Below, piece after piece: positions 24,295 through 50,736 of a DNA stretch of 57,356 bases. The DNA comes from an uncultured Bacilli bacterium (GTDB taxonomy: Bacteria; Bacillota_I; Bacilli_A; RF39; UBA660), in contig CALVVT010000090.1 in the NCBI GenBank assembly GCA_944363935.1, positions 1 to 57,356 on the forward strand. Reading direction: 5' to 3'. Within the stretch, counting starts at the first letter, position 1. Each line of letters starts with the position of its first letter. A model generated the notes under the pieces. That model did no database searches, was not told the DNA's origin, and worked only from the letters and a program-made list of their open reading frames with translations. The position numbers and the translations under genes were made by a program.

Positions 24295-24765
24295 ATGCTG
24301 ATATATACAGGAATTTTTATTTTTAAAATTATTGAGGATGCTTTAGGAACTCTACGAATTATCGTAGTCAGTAACGGCAAGAAAAAATTAGGAGCCTTTT
24401 TACAATTTTTAAATGCTCTAGTTTGGGTTCTTGTTACTGGTACTGTTATTACTAACGTAAATAAAGATCCATTAAAAATTATATTCTTTGCTTTAGGTTC
24501 TTTAGTTGGTTCTTATACTGGAAGTATTTTAGAAGAAAAAATTGCTTTAGGGACTAATATTATTATGACAAAAACTAGTGTTATTAATGCTGAAAGAATA
24601 AAGTTAAATTTAAAAAAATATAAAATTACAGAAGTTAAAGATAATAACAGTACTTTAATTATGATAACTTGTCCACGAAAAAAAAGTGAAGAAGTTATTA
24701 ATTTAATTAAATCATTTGATAAAGACTGTAATATTATTACCGAAAAAGTTAAAAGTTTTTCTTAA
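24295..24765 (+). CDS. UPF0316/DUF2179 family membrane protein
   Basis: The N-terminal pattern KIIEDALGTLRII is typical of UPF0316. Confidence 0.65.
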   Translation: MLIYTGIFIFKIIEDALGTLRIIVVSNGKKKLGAFLQFLNALVWVLVTGTVITNVNKDPLKIIFFALGSLVGSYTGSILEEKIALGTNIIMTKTSVINAERIKLNLKKYKITEVKDNNSTLIMITCPRKKSEEVINLIKSFDKDCNIITEKVKSFS

Positions 24766-25357
24766 TTTCTTTAGCTTTATCAGTAATTATATTAACATTT
24801 CCTTTAGGAATATCTTCTTTTTTATTAACAGTCCATACAAAGGTTTCTTTATTAGTTTTTTGATAATCTTTAACATGAATACTATTAAAATCAAAGTTAT
24901 TTTTTATATGTTTAATATTGATTAAATAGCCAATTATAAGACCTAGTTTATAATTAGTATTTTTCTCTTTTAAATATTTCAATAAATTATAATTAAAGGT
25001 ACAAAGATAATAATTTAAAGAATATTTTTTTAATATTTTAATTAATTTATTAACTAATATTTTATAATTATTTCCTTCTTCTTTGATTTCAATTAAAATT
25101 ATTTTATTACTATTTATATTTTTTAAAACTTCATTTAAACTATTTAAACCATTTTTCATAAGGGTTTTTAATTTAGTTTTTTTAACAAAATAGCCATTAT
25201 AAAACAAATCATGACAAACAATAAATTTTTTATCTTTAGTAAATCTAATATCAAATTCTACCCCATCAGTGTATTTACTATTCAAACTATTTATAATAGC
25301 TTCTAAACTATTTTCTTTATGAATTCCATCATTTCCTCTATGCGCAATTACTTTCAT
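24749..25357 (-). CDS. glycerophosphodiester phosphodiesterase family protein
   Basis: IAHRG...ENSLEA...GVEFDIR...CHD motifs. Confidence 0.8.
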   Translation of the reverse strand: MKVIAHRGNDGIHKENSLEAIINSLNSKYTDGVEFDIRFTKDKKFIVCHDLFYNGYFVKKTKLKTLMKNGLNSLNEVLKNINSNKIILIEIKEEGNNYKILVNKLIKILKKYSLNYYLCTFNYNLLKYLKEKNTNYKLGLIIGYLINIKHIKNNFDFNSIHVKDYQKTNKETFVWTVNKKEDIPKGNVNIITDKAKEIKKNF

Positions 25358-25435
25358 ATTTAAATATATGAAATTTATATTTTTTTATTTATATTTTTAA
25401 AAGTGAGTGTTAGTTACCTTTTTATATAAAATCTA

Positions 25436-25464
25436 TTGAAAAATAGAAAAAAATATGTTATTAT
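25436..25464 (+). promoter_or_regulatory. promoter of small RNA copy 1
   Basis: TTGAAA, 17-nt spacer, TG-extended TATTAT. Equivalent boxes lie at 25799-25827, 26157-26185 and 26517-26545 (TATCAT in copies 3 and 4). Confidence 0.65.
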
Positions 25465-25470
25465 GTATAT

Positions 25471-25586
25471 GGAAGAGAAATCTTCATATAATAAAAAAAG
25501 GAACACTCGATATTGTCTTGCCCGAGTGTTGCCATTATAAATTTTTGGTTCCACCTAATCACAGTTGTGTTAGGTGGTTATTTTTT
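25471..25586 (+). ncRNA. candidate antitoxin small RNA, copy 1
   Basis: Starts ~7 nt after the -10 box. Has a GAAGA-GAAA-TCTTC hairpin, an AACACTCG/CGAGTGTT hairpin, and a terminator CCACCTAA..TTAGGTGG followed by TTATTTTTT. Fully antisense to the 3' UTR of the peptide gene. Confidence 0.6.
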
Positions 25587-25587
25587 C

Positions 25588-25671
25588 TTATTTTAATAAA
25601 GAAAAAACAATTAATAATAGAATAAAAATAATTATAATCAACGATGTGATTAAAAAATCTTTTTTACTCAT
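25588..25671 (-). CDS. 27-aa hydrophobic peptide, candidate type I toxin copy 1
   Basis: Not in the ORF track. MSKKDFLITSLIIIIFILLLIVFSLLK, with SD GGGAGG 8 nt upstream of the ATG. The stop codon abuts the sRNA terminator. Confidence 0.6.
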   Translation of the reverse strand: MSKKDFLITSLIIIIFILLLIVFSLLK

Positions 25672-25737
25672 ATTATCAGCCTCCCTTCATTTATCGAAGT
25701 TTGGCAAACCACCCAACTATCAAGTGTTCCTGAAACA

Positions 25738-25766
25738 ATTATAACAAATATTAGTCATAAAAACAA
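25738..25766 (-). promoter_or_regulatory. promoter of peptide gene copy 1
   Basis: On the minus strand: TTGTTT, 17-nt spacer, TG-extended TATAAT, giving a ~60-nt leader. Equivalent boxes lie at 26095-26123 and 26456-26484. Confidence 0.55.
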
Positions 25767-25833
25767 TGATTATTAATTACCTTTTTCTAAAAAATCTATT
25801 GAAAAATAATAAAAAATATGTTATTATGTATAT

Positions 25834-25942
25834 GGAAGAGAAATCTTCATATAATAAAAAGGAGCACTCGATATTATCCTGTTGGGTGTTGCCATATAAG
25901 ATGGTTCCACCTAATCACAGTTGTGTTAGGTGGTTATTTTTT
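25834..25942 (+). ncRNA. candidate antitoxin small RNA, copy 2
   Basis: Same promoter, hairpins and terminator as copy 1. The internal stem is kept through G-U pairs (AGCACTCG / TGGGTGTT). Confidence 0.6.
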
Positions 25943-25943
25943 C

Positions 25944-26027
25944 TTATTTTAATAAAGAAAAAACAATTAATAATAGAATAAAAATAATTATAATCAACGA
26001 TGTGATCAAAAAATCTTTTTTACTCAT
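25944..26027 (-). CDS. 27-aa hydrophobic peptide, candidate type I toxin copy 2
   Basis: Same peptide as copy 1. The only nucleotide difference is a synonymous TTA->TTG. Confidence 0.6.
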   Translation of the reverse strand: MSKKDFLITSLIIIIFILLLIVFSLLK

Positions 26028-26191
26028 ATTATCAGCCTCCCTTCTTTATAGAGAAGTTTGGCAAGCCACCCAACTATCAAGTGTTCCTGAAACAATTATA
26101 ACAAATATTAGTTATAAAAACAATGATTGTTAGTTACCTTTTTCTGAAAAAATCTATTGAAAAATAGCAGAAAATATGTTATCATGTATAT

Positions 26192-26303
26192 GGAAGAGAA
26201 ATCTTCATATAATAAAAAAAGGAACACTCGATATTGTCTTGTTGGGTGTTGCCATATATTTTTGTGACACCACCTAATCACAGTTGTGTTAGGTGGTCAT
26301 TTT
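26192..26303 (+). ncRNA. candidate antitoxin small RNA, copy 3
   Basis: Promoter TTGAAA-17-TATCAT, conserved hairpins, and terminator at 26270-26296. Confidence 0.55.
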
Positions 26304-26304
26304 A

Positions 26305-26388
26305 TTATATTAAAATTCTAAATATTATTAATAATAATAAAATGATAATGAAGAGTAAAATACAAATTAAAAAATCTTTTTTACTCAT
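26305..26388 (-). CDS. 27-aa hydrophobic peptide, candidate type I toxin copy 3 (diverged TM segment)
   Basis: MSKKDFLICILLFIIILLLLIIFRILI. The SD, the first 8 codons and the length are conserved; the remainder differs but stays hydrophobic. Confidence 0.55.
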   Translation of the reverse strand: MSKKDFLICILLFIIILLLLIIFRILI

Positions 26389-26551
26389 ATTATCAGCCTC
26401 CCTTCTTTATAGAGAAGTTTGGCAAACCACCCAACTATCAAGTGTTCCTAAAACAATTATAACAAATATTAGCCATAAAAACAATGATTGTTAGTTACCT
26501 TTTTCCAAAAAATCTATTGAAAAATAATAGAAAATATGTTATCATGCATAT

Positions 26552-26671: not shown

Positions 26672-26710
26672 AAAAACCCATATTAAGAAACTCTCAATAT
26701 GGGTTATTTT
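26672..26710. terminator. bidirectional terminator at the array boundary / end of the Smr gene
   Basis: ACCCATATT-11 nt-AATATGGGT, flanked by AAAAA on the left and TATTTT on the right. Confidence 0.7.
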
Positions 26711-26976
26711 ATGTCTAAATAAGCTAATGTACAACCTCTATTACTGTAATCACTTTTATATTCTAAAACATATTTATTTTTCTTTAAAGTATTCCAAGTT
26801 ACCTCTCTAATAATACCTGTACCAACGCCATGAACAATAACAATAATTTTATTACTCATTTTAATATTATCATTAATAAAATCATTAATAGCAACTCTAG
26901 CTGTATCTCTATCAAAACCGTGTAAATCTAATTTAGGATAACGCTCTATAAACATAAAATCAGCATATCTCATCAT
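26704..26976 (-). CDS. Smr-domain protein
   Basis: LDLHG....A and VHGVGTG motifs. Confidence 0.8.
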   Translation of the reverse strand: MMRYADFMFIERYPKLDLHGFDRDTARVAINDFINDNIKMSNKIIVIVHGVGTGIIREVTWNTLKKNKYVLEYKSDYSNRGCTLAYLDIK

Positions 26977-45451: not shown

Positions 45452-45527
45452 TGGTGCTGGAAACAGGACTTGAACCTGCGACCTACCGATTACGAGACGG
45501 TTGCTCTACCAGCTGAGCTAATCCAGC
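45452..45527 (-). tRNA. tRNA-Thr (anticodon CGU)
   Basis: The reverse complement GCTGGATTAGCTCAGCTGGTAGAGCAACCGTCTCGTAATCGGTAGGTCGCAGGTTCAAGTCCTGTTTCCAGCACCA folds as a cloverleaf. Anticodon loop CT-CGT-AA; encoded CCA. Confidence 0.9.
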
Positions 45528-47325: not shown

Positions 47326-47527
47326 TAGTTTATTAAACAAAGACGAGGAATAGTAGTAAAATCCCTTATTTATAGTGAGTCAGTGGTTAGTGGAAACTGA
47401 AAATAATATTTTACGAACGCACCTTCCGAGTTTAATCGTATTTCTGCGTTAAAGATTAAAGTGCATAGAAATTCTATGAAGTAAGGTGGTACCGCGAATT
47501 TTCGTCCTTATTTTATAGAATTTTTTT
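47326..47527 (+). promoter_or_regulatory. T-box riboswitch leader, probable Arg specifier (CGC)
   Basis: Conserved T-box AAGGTGGTACCGCG at 47483-47496. GAA-CGC-A specifier-like context at 47415-47421. An 18-bp terminator helix (47469-47486 with 47506-47523) is followed by TTTTATT, directly upstream of argS. Confidence 0.85.
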
Positions 47528-50659: not shown

Positions 50660-50736
50660 TGGCGTCCATGAAAGGGCTCGAACCTTCGACCTATCGCTTA
50701 GGAGGCGATTGCTCTATCCAGCTGAGCTACATGGAC
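50660..50736 (-). tRNA. tRNA-Arg (anticodon CCU)
   Basis: The reverse complement GTCCATGTAGCTCAGCTGGATAGAGCAATCGCCTCCTAAGCGATAGGTCGAAGGTTCGAGCCCTTTCATGGACGCCA folds as a cloverleaf. Anticodon stem ATCGC/GCGAT, loop CT-CCT-AA. Confidence 0.9.

Follow-up and report, generated by a model that had tools for sequence, protein, structure and literature searches.

A tandem array of 3.5 direct-repeat units of 356-363 bp (repeat families D1-D4) is found at about positions 25400..26700 of contig CALVVT010000090.1 (assembly GCA_944363935.1), from an uncultured Bacilli bacterium of the RF39/UBA660 lineage; the whole 57,356-nucleotide stretch that was analyzed is referred to here as the window, and all positions are counted from its first letter. 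Alignment of the four units gave a mean column identity of 82%, and signature motifs of the unit occur four times in the window, against 0.00 occurrences expected from shuffles. Each unit contains a minus-strand gene for a short peptide mRNA and a convergent plus-strand gene for a small RNA (sRNA) of ~125 nt. The predicted transcripts run toward each other, and their overlap of ~100 nt takes in the entire 3' untranslated region (UTR) of the mRNA; over this stretch, as far as the last codons, the sRNA is perfectly complementary to the mRNA. By its layout, each unit is probably a type I toxin-antitoxin-like module, of a family not previously described. The array tallies four sRNA copies against three open reading frames (ORFs), as follows (SD, Shine-Dalgarno sequence; CM, covariance model).

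25588..25671, minus strand: peptide gene copy 1, encoding MSKKDFLITSLIIIIFILLLIVFSLLK (27 aa), with its SD AAGGGAGG at 25680-25687
25944..26027, minus strand: peptide gene copy 2, encoding the copy 1 peptide, with its SD at 26036-26043
26305..26388, minus strand: peptide gene copy 3, encoding MSKKDFLICILLFIIILLLLIIFRILI (27 aa), with its SD at 26397-26404; a pseudogene in contig L001 of a conspecific strain
25488..25731, minus strand: predicted mRNA 1 (~245 nt), 5' end at the A at 25731, leader 25703-25731, extended -10 element TGTTATAAT at 25738-25746; the 3' UTR ends at a terminator (the complement of sRNA hairpin 2, 25500-25533) plus a U-tract, giving a putative 3' end
25850..26088, minus strand: predicted mRNA 2, leader 26060-26088, -10 element 26095-26103
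26208..26449, minus strand: predicted mRNA 3, leader 26421-26449, -10 element 26456-26464
25436..25464, plus strand: predicted promoter of sRNA 1 (TTGAAA, 17 nt, TG-n-TATTAT)
25799-25827, 26157-26185 and 26517-26545, plus strand: the equivalent promoters of sRNAs 2 to 4
25469..25594, plus strand: antisense sRNA 1 (~125 nt), CM score 88.4 bits, made up of a 5' hairpin with a GAAA loop (25471-25485), an A-rich linker, hairpin 2 (25500-25533), and a terminator hairpin (25551-25577) followed by a U-tract
25832..25950, plus strand: antisense sRNA 2, partner of ORF 2, CM score 89.2 bits
26190..26312, plus strand: antisense sRNA 3, partner of ORF 3, CM score 93.0 bits
26550..26672, plus strand: orphan antisense sRNA 4, with promoter, three hairpins and terminator, CM score 68 bits

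In all three peptide genes the SD AAGGGAGG (plus-strand CCTCCCTT) lies 8 nt upstream of the ATG. A preliminary description of this DNA had reported that copies 1 and 2 encode the same peptide with a lone synonymous change, and the two genes indeed differ at 1 base, position 21, where codon 7 is TTA in one and TTG in the other, both specifying Leu. It had further reported that copy 3 retains the SD, the ATG, the N-terminal sequence MSKKDFLI and the length of 27 codons, with an altered yet hydrophobic tail. Both statements held: the first eight codons of copy 3 carry one synonymous change (ATC vs ATT), its last 60 nt contain 25 differences, and the grand average of hydropathy (GRAVY) of residues 6-26 is 3.3-3.5. 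Over their full 27 residues, the window peptides have a GRAVY of 2.0-2.5 and fit the profile of type I toxins, which are shorter than 60-70 aa and hydrophobic, with one predicted transmembrane helix. They follow a simple plan, an N terminus of the form M-S/T-K-K-D-F-L-I and then 16-19 hydrophobic residues. Among the paralogues in the window, the promoter, leader, SD and first eight codons are 93-100% identical, and codons 9-27 only 65%. This contrast resembles a cassette pattern and suggests recombination in the conserved flanks, or else a transmembrane segment under relaxed or diversifying selection.

To place the array in a wider context, we scanned a one-genome-per-species collection with a pattern made up of GGAGG, a spacer of 6-10 nt, and the back-translated motif M-S/T/C-K-K-D/E-F-L-I. 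Matches were obtained at no fewer than 118 loci (at least 118) in at least 103 assemblies, several of which hold two or three loci; 114 of the 118 matches listed are short hydrophobic ORFs, mostly of 27 or 24 codons. The counts of sRNAs, ORFs, mRNAs and neighboring genes given below were all drawn from loci among these listed matches. The carriers are metagenome-assembled genomes (MAGs) labeled uncultured Bacilli, Tenericutes, Mycoplasma sp. CAG:611, Firmicutes CAG:822, Candidatus (Ca.) Coprosoma and similar, and the host guts are human, rabbit, ruminant, mouse and chicken. Bona fide modules were also seen on AT-rich contigs of MAGs labeled "uncultured Muribaculaceae" (Bacteroidota), at L015, L016, L044, L048, L067, L085, L091-L093 and L102; these bins are likely mislabeled or contaminated.

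A covariance model of the sRNA, R1, identified 132 non-overlapping sRNA copies, in tandem sets of two to four in many species. About 85% of the copies lie opposite a hydrophobic ORF with an SD and an ATG, typically of 24 or 27 codons, and ~15 copies are orphans. In the window the array stops at orphan sRNA 4, which has no convergent ORF partner, and the same orphan is present in L001. Orphans were located at L001 2305-2418, L071 4994-5099, L038 5346-5448, L118 816-922, L008 3261-3336 and L029 537-652; in the window and in several other species the orphan occupies the same end of the array, beside the promoter side of the last toxin gene. Such copies may be remnants, or they may serve as spare antitoxins in trans. 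Some arrays are heterogeneous (L071 3851-4115, L100 3132-3396, L096 6541-6806, L038 5818-6082), mixing the MSKKDFLI type with a second peptide type of 29-30 aa that starts MK(N/T/K)K, ends IKK or CIKK, and has the same kind of sRNA partner. There are also sub-families with the same peptide N terminus and a different downstream RNA, at L009, L090, L101 and L116 (29 aa), at L012, L015, L044, L092 and L122 (22 aa), and at L041, L042, L062, L082, L086, L098 and L104; their downstream RNAs are without the 5' hairpin, have other hairpin 2 sequences, and give a weak R1 score or none.

The preliminary description had argued that the short ORFs are real genes rather than chance ORFs in AT-rich DNA, and had proposed a codon-aware test of conservation in relatives. 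For this test the loci were located through the neighboring sRNA and not through the ORF, so that the result is independent of the peptide search pattern. Of the 102 distinct ORF sequences, 99% have the ORF frame open over at least 22 codons, and the two shifted frames reach 0% and 24%, with the caveat that the ORF was picked by hydrophobicity and SD score and that the sequences are mutually related. T occupies codon position 2 in 83% of family codons, and column entropies at codon positions 1, 2 and 3 are 1.08, 0.46 and 1.20. The pN/pS ratio (nonsynonymous to synonymous changes) is 0.32 in the 27-codon group, the lowest of the six frames; in the 24-codon group it is 0.40, and one shifted frame gives a similar value, yet that frame is never open. 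Lengths cluster at 27 codons (57 sequences) and 24 codons (22 sequences) within a family range of 22-30 aa. The N-terminal peptide motif is preserved through synonymous codon changes, and approaching from the sRNA side we also met N termini that lie outside the search pattern, namely MNKKDFL, MKKKDLL, MKKREYI, MKNKTFI, MAGKDFI and MTKRELS. Frame openness, the position-2 T bias and pN/pS thus all favor coding. Against a pattern of frameshifts and stops as frequent as in flanking noncoding DNA, which the preliminary description named as contrary evidence, ~85% of units have an intact SD and ORF; decayed copies do exist, such as copy 3 in L001. We conclude that the ORF is under protein-level selection, with translation predicted from the sequence. 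What the preliminary description had overlooked is that the repeat unit is far larger than the ORF, that it includes an antisense RNA partner, and that the whole has a toxin-antitoxin layout. Two plus-strand frames were considered as genes and rejected: a 56-aa ORF at 25574-25744 lacks an SD, and so does a short ORF at the 5' end of the sRNA, which is unconserved and spans just six codons in most relatives.

These statistics bear directly on a different account of the array, in which the unit is a non-coding repeat, either a structured RNA or the remnant of a mobile element with inverted repeats, and the 27-codon frame is a T-rich by-product. An imperfect inverted repeat of ~28 bp does flank the unit (leader vs terminator region), genomic sites vary, and the non-coding parts are more conserved among paralogues than the body of the ORF. 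The openness of one specific frame, its three-base periodicity and low pN/pS, and the invariant SD at the right spacing before a protein motif kept through synonymous changes all argue the other way. Reading of the sequences brought to notice neither target-site duplications nor transposase genes, though no search aimed at them was made. With the pairing evidence presented below, which points to selection on RNA and not on inverted repeats in DNA, we regard this account as scarcely credible.

The sRNA has the appearance of an independent transcription unit. Its promoter in the window shows 10/12 consensus matches and a TG extension in all four copies; family-wide, 102 of 120 promoters are TG-extended, and the -35 element matches at 4/6 positions or more in 100 of 120. 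The U-tract of sRNA 1 overlaps the last codons of ORF 1. The minimum free energy (MFE) of sRNA 1 is -32.1 kcal/mol (z = -3.6). RNAalifold, applied to 80 aligned downstream regions (A2), returned two helices with compensatory changes in 15/19 pairs; the 5' hairpin was absent from this RNAalifold/MAFFT result owing to a one-column misalignment, and was recovered on realignment to the covariance model. In the resulting 121-copy alignment, 93.1% of stem cells are paired (shuffles give 81.1%, and slid partners 22-44%), and compensatory double changes are seen in 22/23 pairs, figures to be read with the caveat that the controls leave some phylogenetic relatedness and that the covariance-model alignment is fitted to the structure. 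The stems contain 345 G-U against 58 A-C combinations, and for each hairpin the folding energies favor the sRNA strand over its complement (for hairpin 2, -8.5 vs -4.6 kcal/mol). This excess of G-U, together with the greater stability on the sRNA strand, indicates selection on the plus-strand transcript. The sRNA is thus a conserved structured RNA, with a predicted promoter and terminator of its own, both conserved in the family.

The predicted peptide mRNA is also highly structured. Downstream of the extended -10 TGTTATAAT come a leader of 28 nt, AGGAACACTTGATAGTTGGGTGGTTTGCC, and a small SD-closing hairpin, then the ORF, and after it two hairpins, the first without a U-tract and the second followed by U7. 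Read from the sequence of the mRNA strand, the first of the two downstream hairpins is the complement of the sRNA terminator and is followed by AACCAAAAAT with no U-tract, and the next hairpin is followed by U7. Family-wide, the toxin promoter has a -10 element matching at 5/6 positions or more in 71/80 cases, and its -35 element is weak. The MFE of mRNA 2 is -81.2 kcal/mol (z = -9.9), and its fold contains a closed 5'-3' helix. For every full-length mRNA, the MFE structure joins the first ~28 nt to the 3' terminator hairpin, both arms of which take part in the pairing. Across 82 loci, the mean duplex energy of the leader is -31.1 kcal/mol with its own 3' UTR, -22.1 with non-cognate 3' UTRs and -19.2 with the sRNA, and -12.4 for a shuffled leader; pairing with the cognate 3' UTR is better in 80 of the 82.

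In the leader-terminator helix, 96.2% of cells are paired and 12/20 pairs show double changes by a column-wise count; for the local terminator hairpin on the mRNA strand, merely 77.4% of cells are paired. The helix contains 190 G-U against 15 A-C combinations, which argues for selection at the RNA level, on the mRNA strand, rather than for an inverted repeat in the DNA. The SD itself is predicted to be sequestered, with a median unpaired probability of 0.05-0.08 (82 loci). A hairpin that closes it is supported by covariation between the last RCC of the leader and the base after GGAGG, in the combinations GCC-C (35), ACC-T (23), GCC-T (12) and ACC-C (1), of which 70/71 are compatible with pairing. 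Since the leader is complementary to a stretch that the sRNA also covers, it is a sequence mimic of sRNA hairpin 2, in effect that hairpin minus its loop, and leader, terminator hairpin and sRNA would compete for one segment.

Evidence on how the module evolves came from other assemblies of the same species. Contig L001, from a conspecific strain, carries an array that is one unit shorter, between flanking proteins 99-100% identical to those of the window. Its counterpart of peptide copy 3 has decayed by a 20-nt deletion, a G-to-A change in the SD and an insertion in the spacer; the sRNA is intact. Tandem duplication, orphan antitoxins and decaying toxins would be the expected evolution of toxin-antitoxin modules of this kind. 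The contigs of three independent assemblies of the species (L002, L003 and L004) break off precisely at the array's edge, 58-84 nt upstream of the GDPD gene, which identifies the repeat as an assembly breakpoint; the copy number of the array in short-read MAGs is probably under-counted.

The array is flanked in the window by housekeeping genes, as follows.

24749-25357, minus strand: GDPD gene, at one flank of the array
26704-26976, minus strand: Smr-domain gene, at the other flank

The GDPD gene is convergent with a plus-strand DUF5698 gene (24295-24765), and their 3' ends overlap by 17 nt (24749-24765). Elsewhere in the window, and unrelated to the array, are a T-box leader (47331-47512, 122.7 bits) and tRNA genes at 45455-45527 and 50663-50736. 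The flanking genes of the window recur near just 2 of the 118 loci. Among neighbor proteins, 213/233 clusters are singletons, with no recurrent family beyond generic ABC ATPases. Searches of plasmid and phage collections by blastn gave no match, and the peptide pattern had 0 matches in 2.9 million viral contigs. By its sequence context the module is chromosomal, not carried on a plasmid or phage.

The same neighborhoods bear on whether the peptides are precursors of exported signaling or antimicrobial peptides, such as pheromones of the SHP/Rgg or PrgQ type or leaderless bacteriocins. A basic N terminus followed by a hydrophobic stretch resembles the precursors of SHP-type pheromones, and antisense control of a pheromone-precursor locus has a precedent in prgQ/Anti-Q. 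Beside the modules, however, there is no recurrent regulator of the Rgg/RNPP type and no recurrent processing, export or immunity gene; the most conserved part of the peptide is its N terminus and not the C-terminal part that would be released; and no family match was obtained. We consider an exported product very unlikely.

Database searches likewise returned no relatives of the module. Matches in Rfam, at the gathering threshold and at E <= 10, were at chance level only, and Pfam and NCBIfam gave none above noise, just chance-level hits or weak, sub-threshold ones to generic transmembrane segments such as SecE. An exact look-up of eight representative peptides in a collection of 15 billion proteins found none of them. 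By sequence, the module lies outside the BsrG, TxpA, Fst, Hok, Ldr and Ibs families.

Its architecture was then compared with that of known type I systems. As in bsrG/SR4 of Bacillus subtilis (SPbeta prophage), the antitoxin RNA described here is convergent with the toxin mRNA and complementary to its 3' end, a helix sequesters the SD, and the promoter on the antitoxin side looks the stronger of the two. The 5' stem-loop of SR4 lies outside the complementary region (PMC3834814), and so does that of the sRNA described here. Nucleotides 1-33 of bsrG pair, in helix P1, with the 3' region covered by SR4 (PMC3834814), and ~nt 1-28 pair here with the antitoxin-covered 3' region of the mRNA; as the antitoxin covers the 3' partner of the mRNA 5' end, its binding must displace that end. 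Unlike bsrG/SR4, with which it shares no peptide or RNA sequence similarity (27 aa here vs 38 aa), the new module is chromosomal and forms tandem arrays, is not part of a phage, and has as the 3' partner of its leader the terminator hairpin itself, both arms included. A tightening of the SD hairpin on sRNA binding, as in bsrG/SR4, in which the freed leader would close the hairpin, was not reproduced in silico and gained no support from partition-function folding, in which the SD is closed in both states.

An antisense RNA (asRNA) on the 3' side is the Gram-positive organization (PMC8594479). The systems txpA/RatA, bsrE/SR5 and yonT/SR6 share with the new module a 3'-side asRNA that overlaps part of the mRNA, the final stretch of the ORF included (PMC8594479), and duplex-dependent mRNA decay as its expected action; they differ in belonging to other peptide and RNA families, the new module being without a match in Rfam or Pfam. 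Like the new module, Fst/RNA II (par of pAD1, Fst/Ldr superfamily) has convergent promoters and terminator stem-loops that are complementary to each other; in its toxin RNA a 5' stem-loop sequesters the SD, and the extreme 5' end is hidden in a helix formed within the molecule (PMC7472228). In Fst/RNA II, however, a single bidirectional terminator is shared, whereas the overlap here is ~100 nt, and the Fst toxin has a PXXXG(C) motif and a charged C-terminal tail (PMC7472228), neither of which is found in the family peptides, which have no Pro or Gly motif. A second complementarity of the DRa/DRb type was ruled out by duplex energy at the level of shuffles: the 5' 38 nt of the sRNA against the translation initiation region gave -7.60 kcal/mol, vs -7.29 for shuffles, and was better in 39/84 cases.

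A long-distance 5'-3' helix also closes the full-length toxin mRNA in hok/Sok and aapA1/IsoA1, going by the titles and abstracts of PMC6733600 and PMC5416894. The antisense RNA of those systems is directed at the 5' region or at the translation initiation region, and the mRNA is activated when its 3' end is trimmed; the antisense RNA here targets the 3' segment that forms the helix. Finally, ldr/rdl, ibs/sib and zorO/orzO of Escherichia coli also consist of near-identical units repeated in one intergenic region with unannotated ORFs (PMC2887945), but these are proteobacterial, their antisense RNA lies 5' of the ORF or across it, and their sequences are unrelated.

Several points weigh against the toxin-antitoxin reading. 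The carrier organisms are uncultured, and Rfam, Pfam and NCBIfam contain no toxin or antitoxin family with sequence similarity to it. According to Fozo et al., a typical type I toxin has a polar or aromatic C-terminal tail; the family peptides lack such a tail and are charged at the N terminus instead. The ends of the transcripts are predicted from consensus motifs only. When 82 mRNAs were folded as ensembles, with their 3' UTR either free or blocked, SD accessibility showed no systematic change (47/82, p = 0.51); the SD is predicted to be closed in every state, and the reading offers no step by which translation would be activated. The caveat on the covariation controls given above counts on the same side.

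The peptide might instead be benign, a small membrane protein such as a subunit or regulator of a membrane complex, with its expression tuned by a cis-antisense RNA; the module would then be antisense-regulated without being a toxin-antitoxin system. The coding and antisense evidence would fit such a protein equally well, and so would the lack of a C-terminal tail with the charged or aromatic residues of many type I toxins. The N-terminal motif MSKKDFLI shows very strong conservation as protein, which could reflect a specific partner, and the weak SecE-like matches are to generic transmembrane segments. A protein of this kind is harder to reconcile with the neighborhoods, which contain no conserved gene and no synteny, or with a module that is multi-copy, tandem and dispersed and that changes copy number and becomes a pseudogene between strains. 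The transmembrane sequence varies freely while remaining hydrophobic, and it is typical of toxic products to be silenced twice over, as here by a closed SD and by ~100 nt of antisense overlap. We therefore think a benign role unlikely, and continue to favor a type I toxin-antitoxin-like module.

A mechanism for such a module can be proposed. On the toxin side, the structured minus-strand mRNA of ~245 nt would be translated into a 27-residue membrane peptide with a single helix; on the antitoxin side, the convergent ~125-nt sRNA would be transcribed from the stronger-looking promoter. The 5'-3' helix and the SD hairpin would keep the free mRNA stable and poorly translated. By analogy with bsrG/SR4 and txpA/RatA, the sRNA would pair at the 3' end of the mRNA, displace the leader and form a long duplex. 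Cleavage of this duplex (by RNase III in model systems) would destabilize the toxin mRNA and turn off peptide synthesis. If the sRNA were lost, the peptide would be made and the membrane damaged.

Type I toxin-antitoxin families are regarded as narrowly distributed and hard to find. The present analysis gives at least 103 species of uncultured gut Bacilli/"Tenericutes" an additional, previously unannotated gene family that comprises a peptide and an sRNA, and indicates that genes of fewer than 30 codons can be recovered from sequence alone. The family comes with a covariance model, clear covariation and a testable RNA mechanism, in which a leader that mimics the antitoxin pairs with its own terminator, and the array accounts for the assembly breaks at this locus in these genomes. 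More speculatively, and with low confidence, the module might be the main antisense-controlled membrane-peptide system of a reduced-genome, uncultured gut lineage. Leader (an evolved antitoxin mimic), terminator and sRNA would then compete for a segment of ~30 nt and so set a threshold switch for release of the peptide, for example on phage infection or transcription shut-off, and heterogeneous arrays and orphan antitoxins would cross-protect the paralogues.

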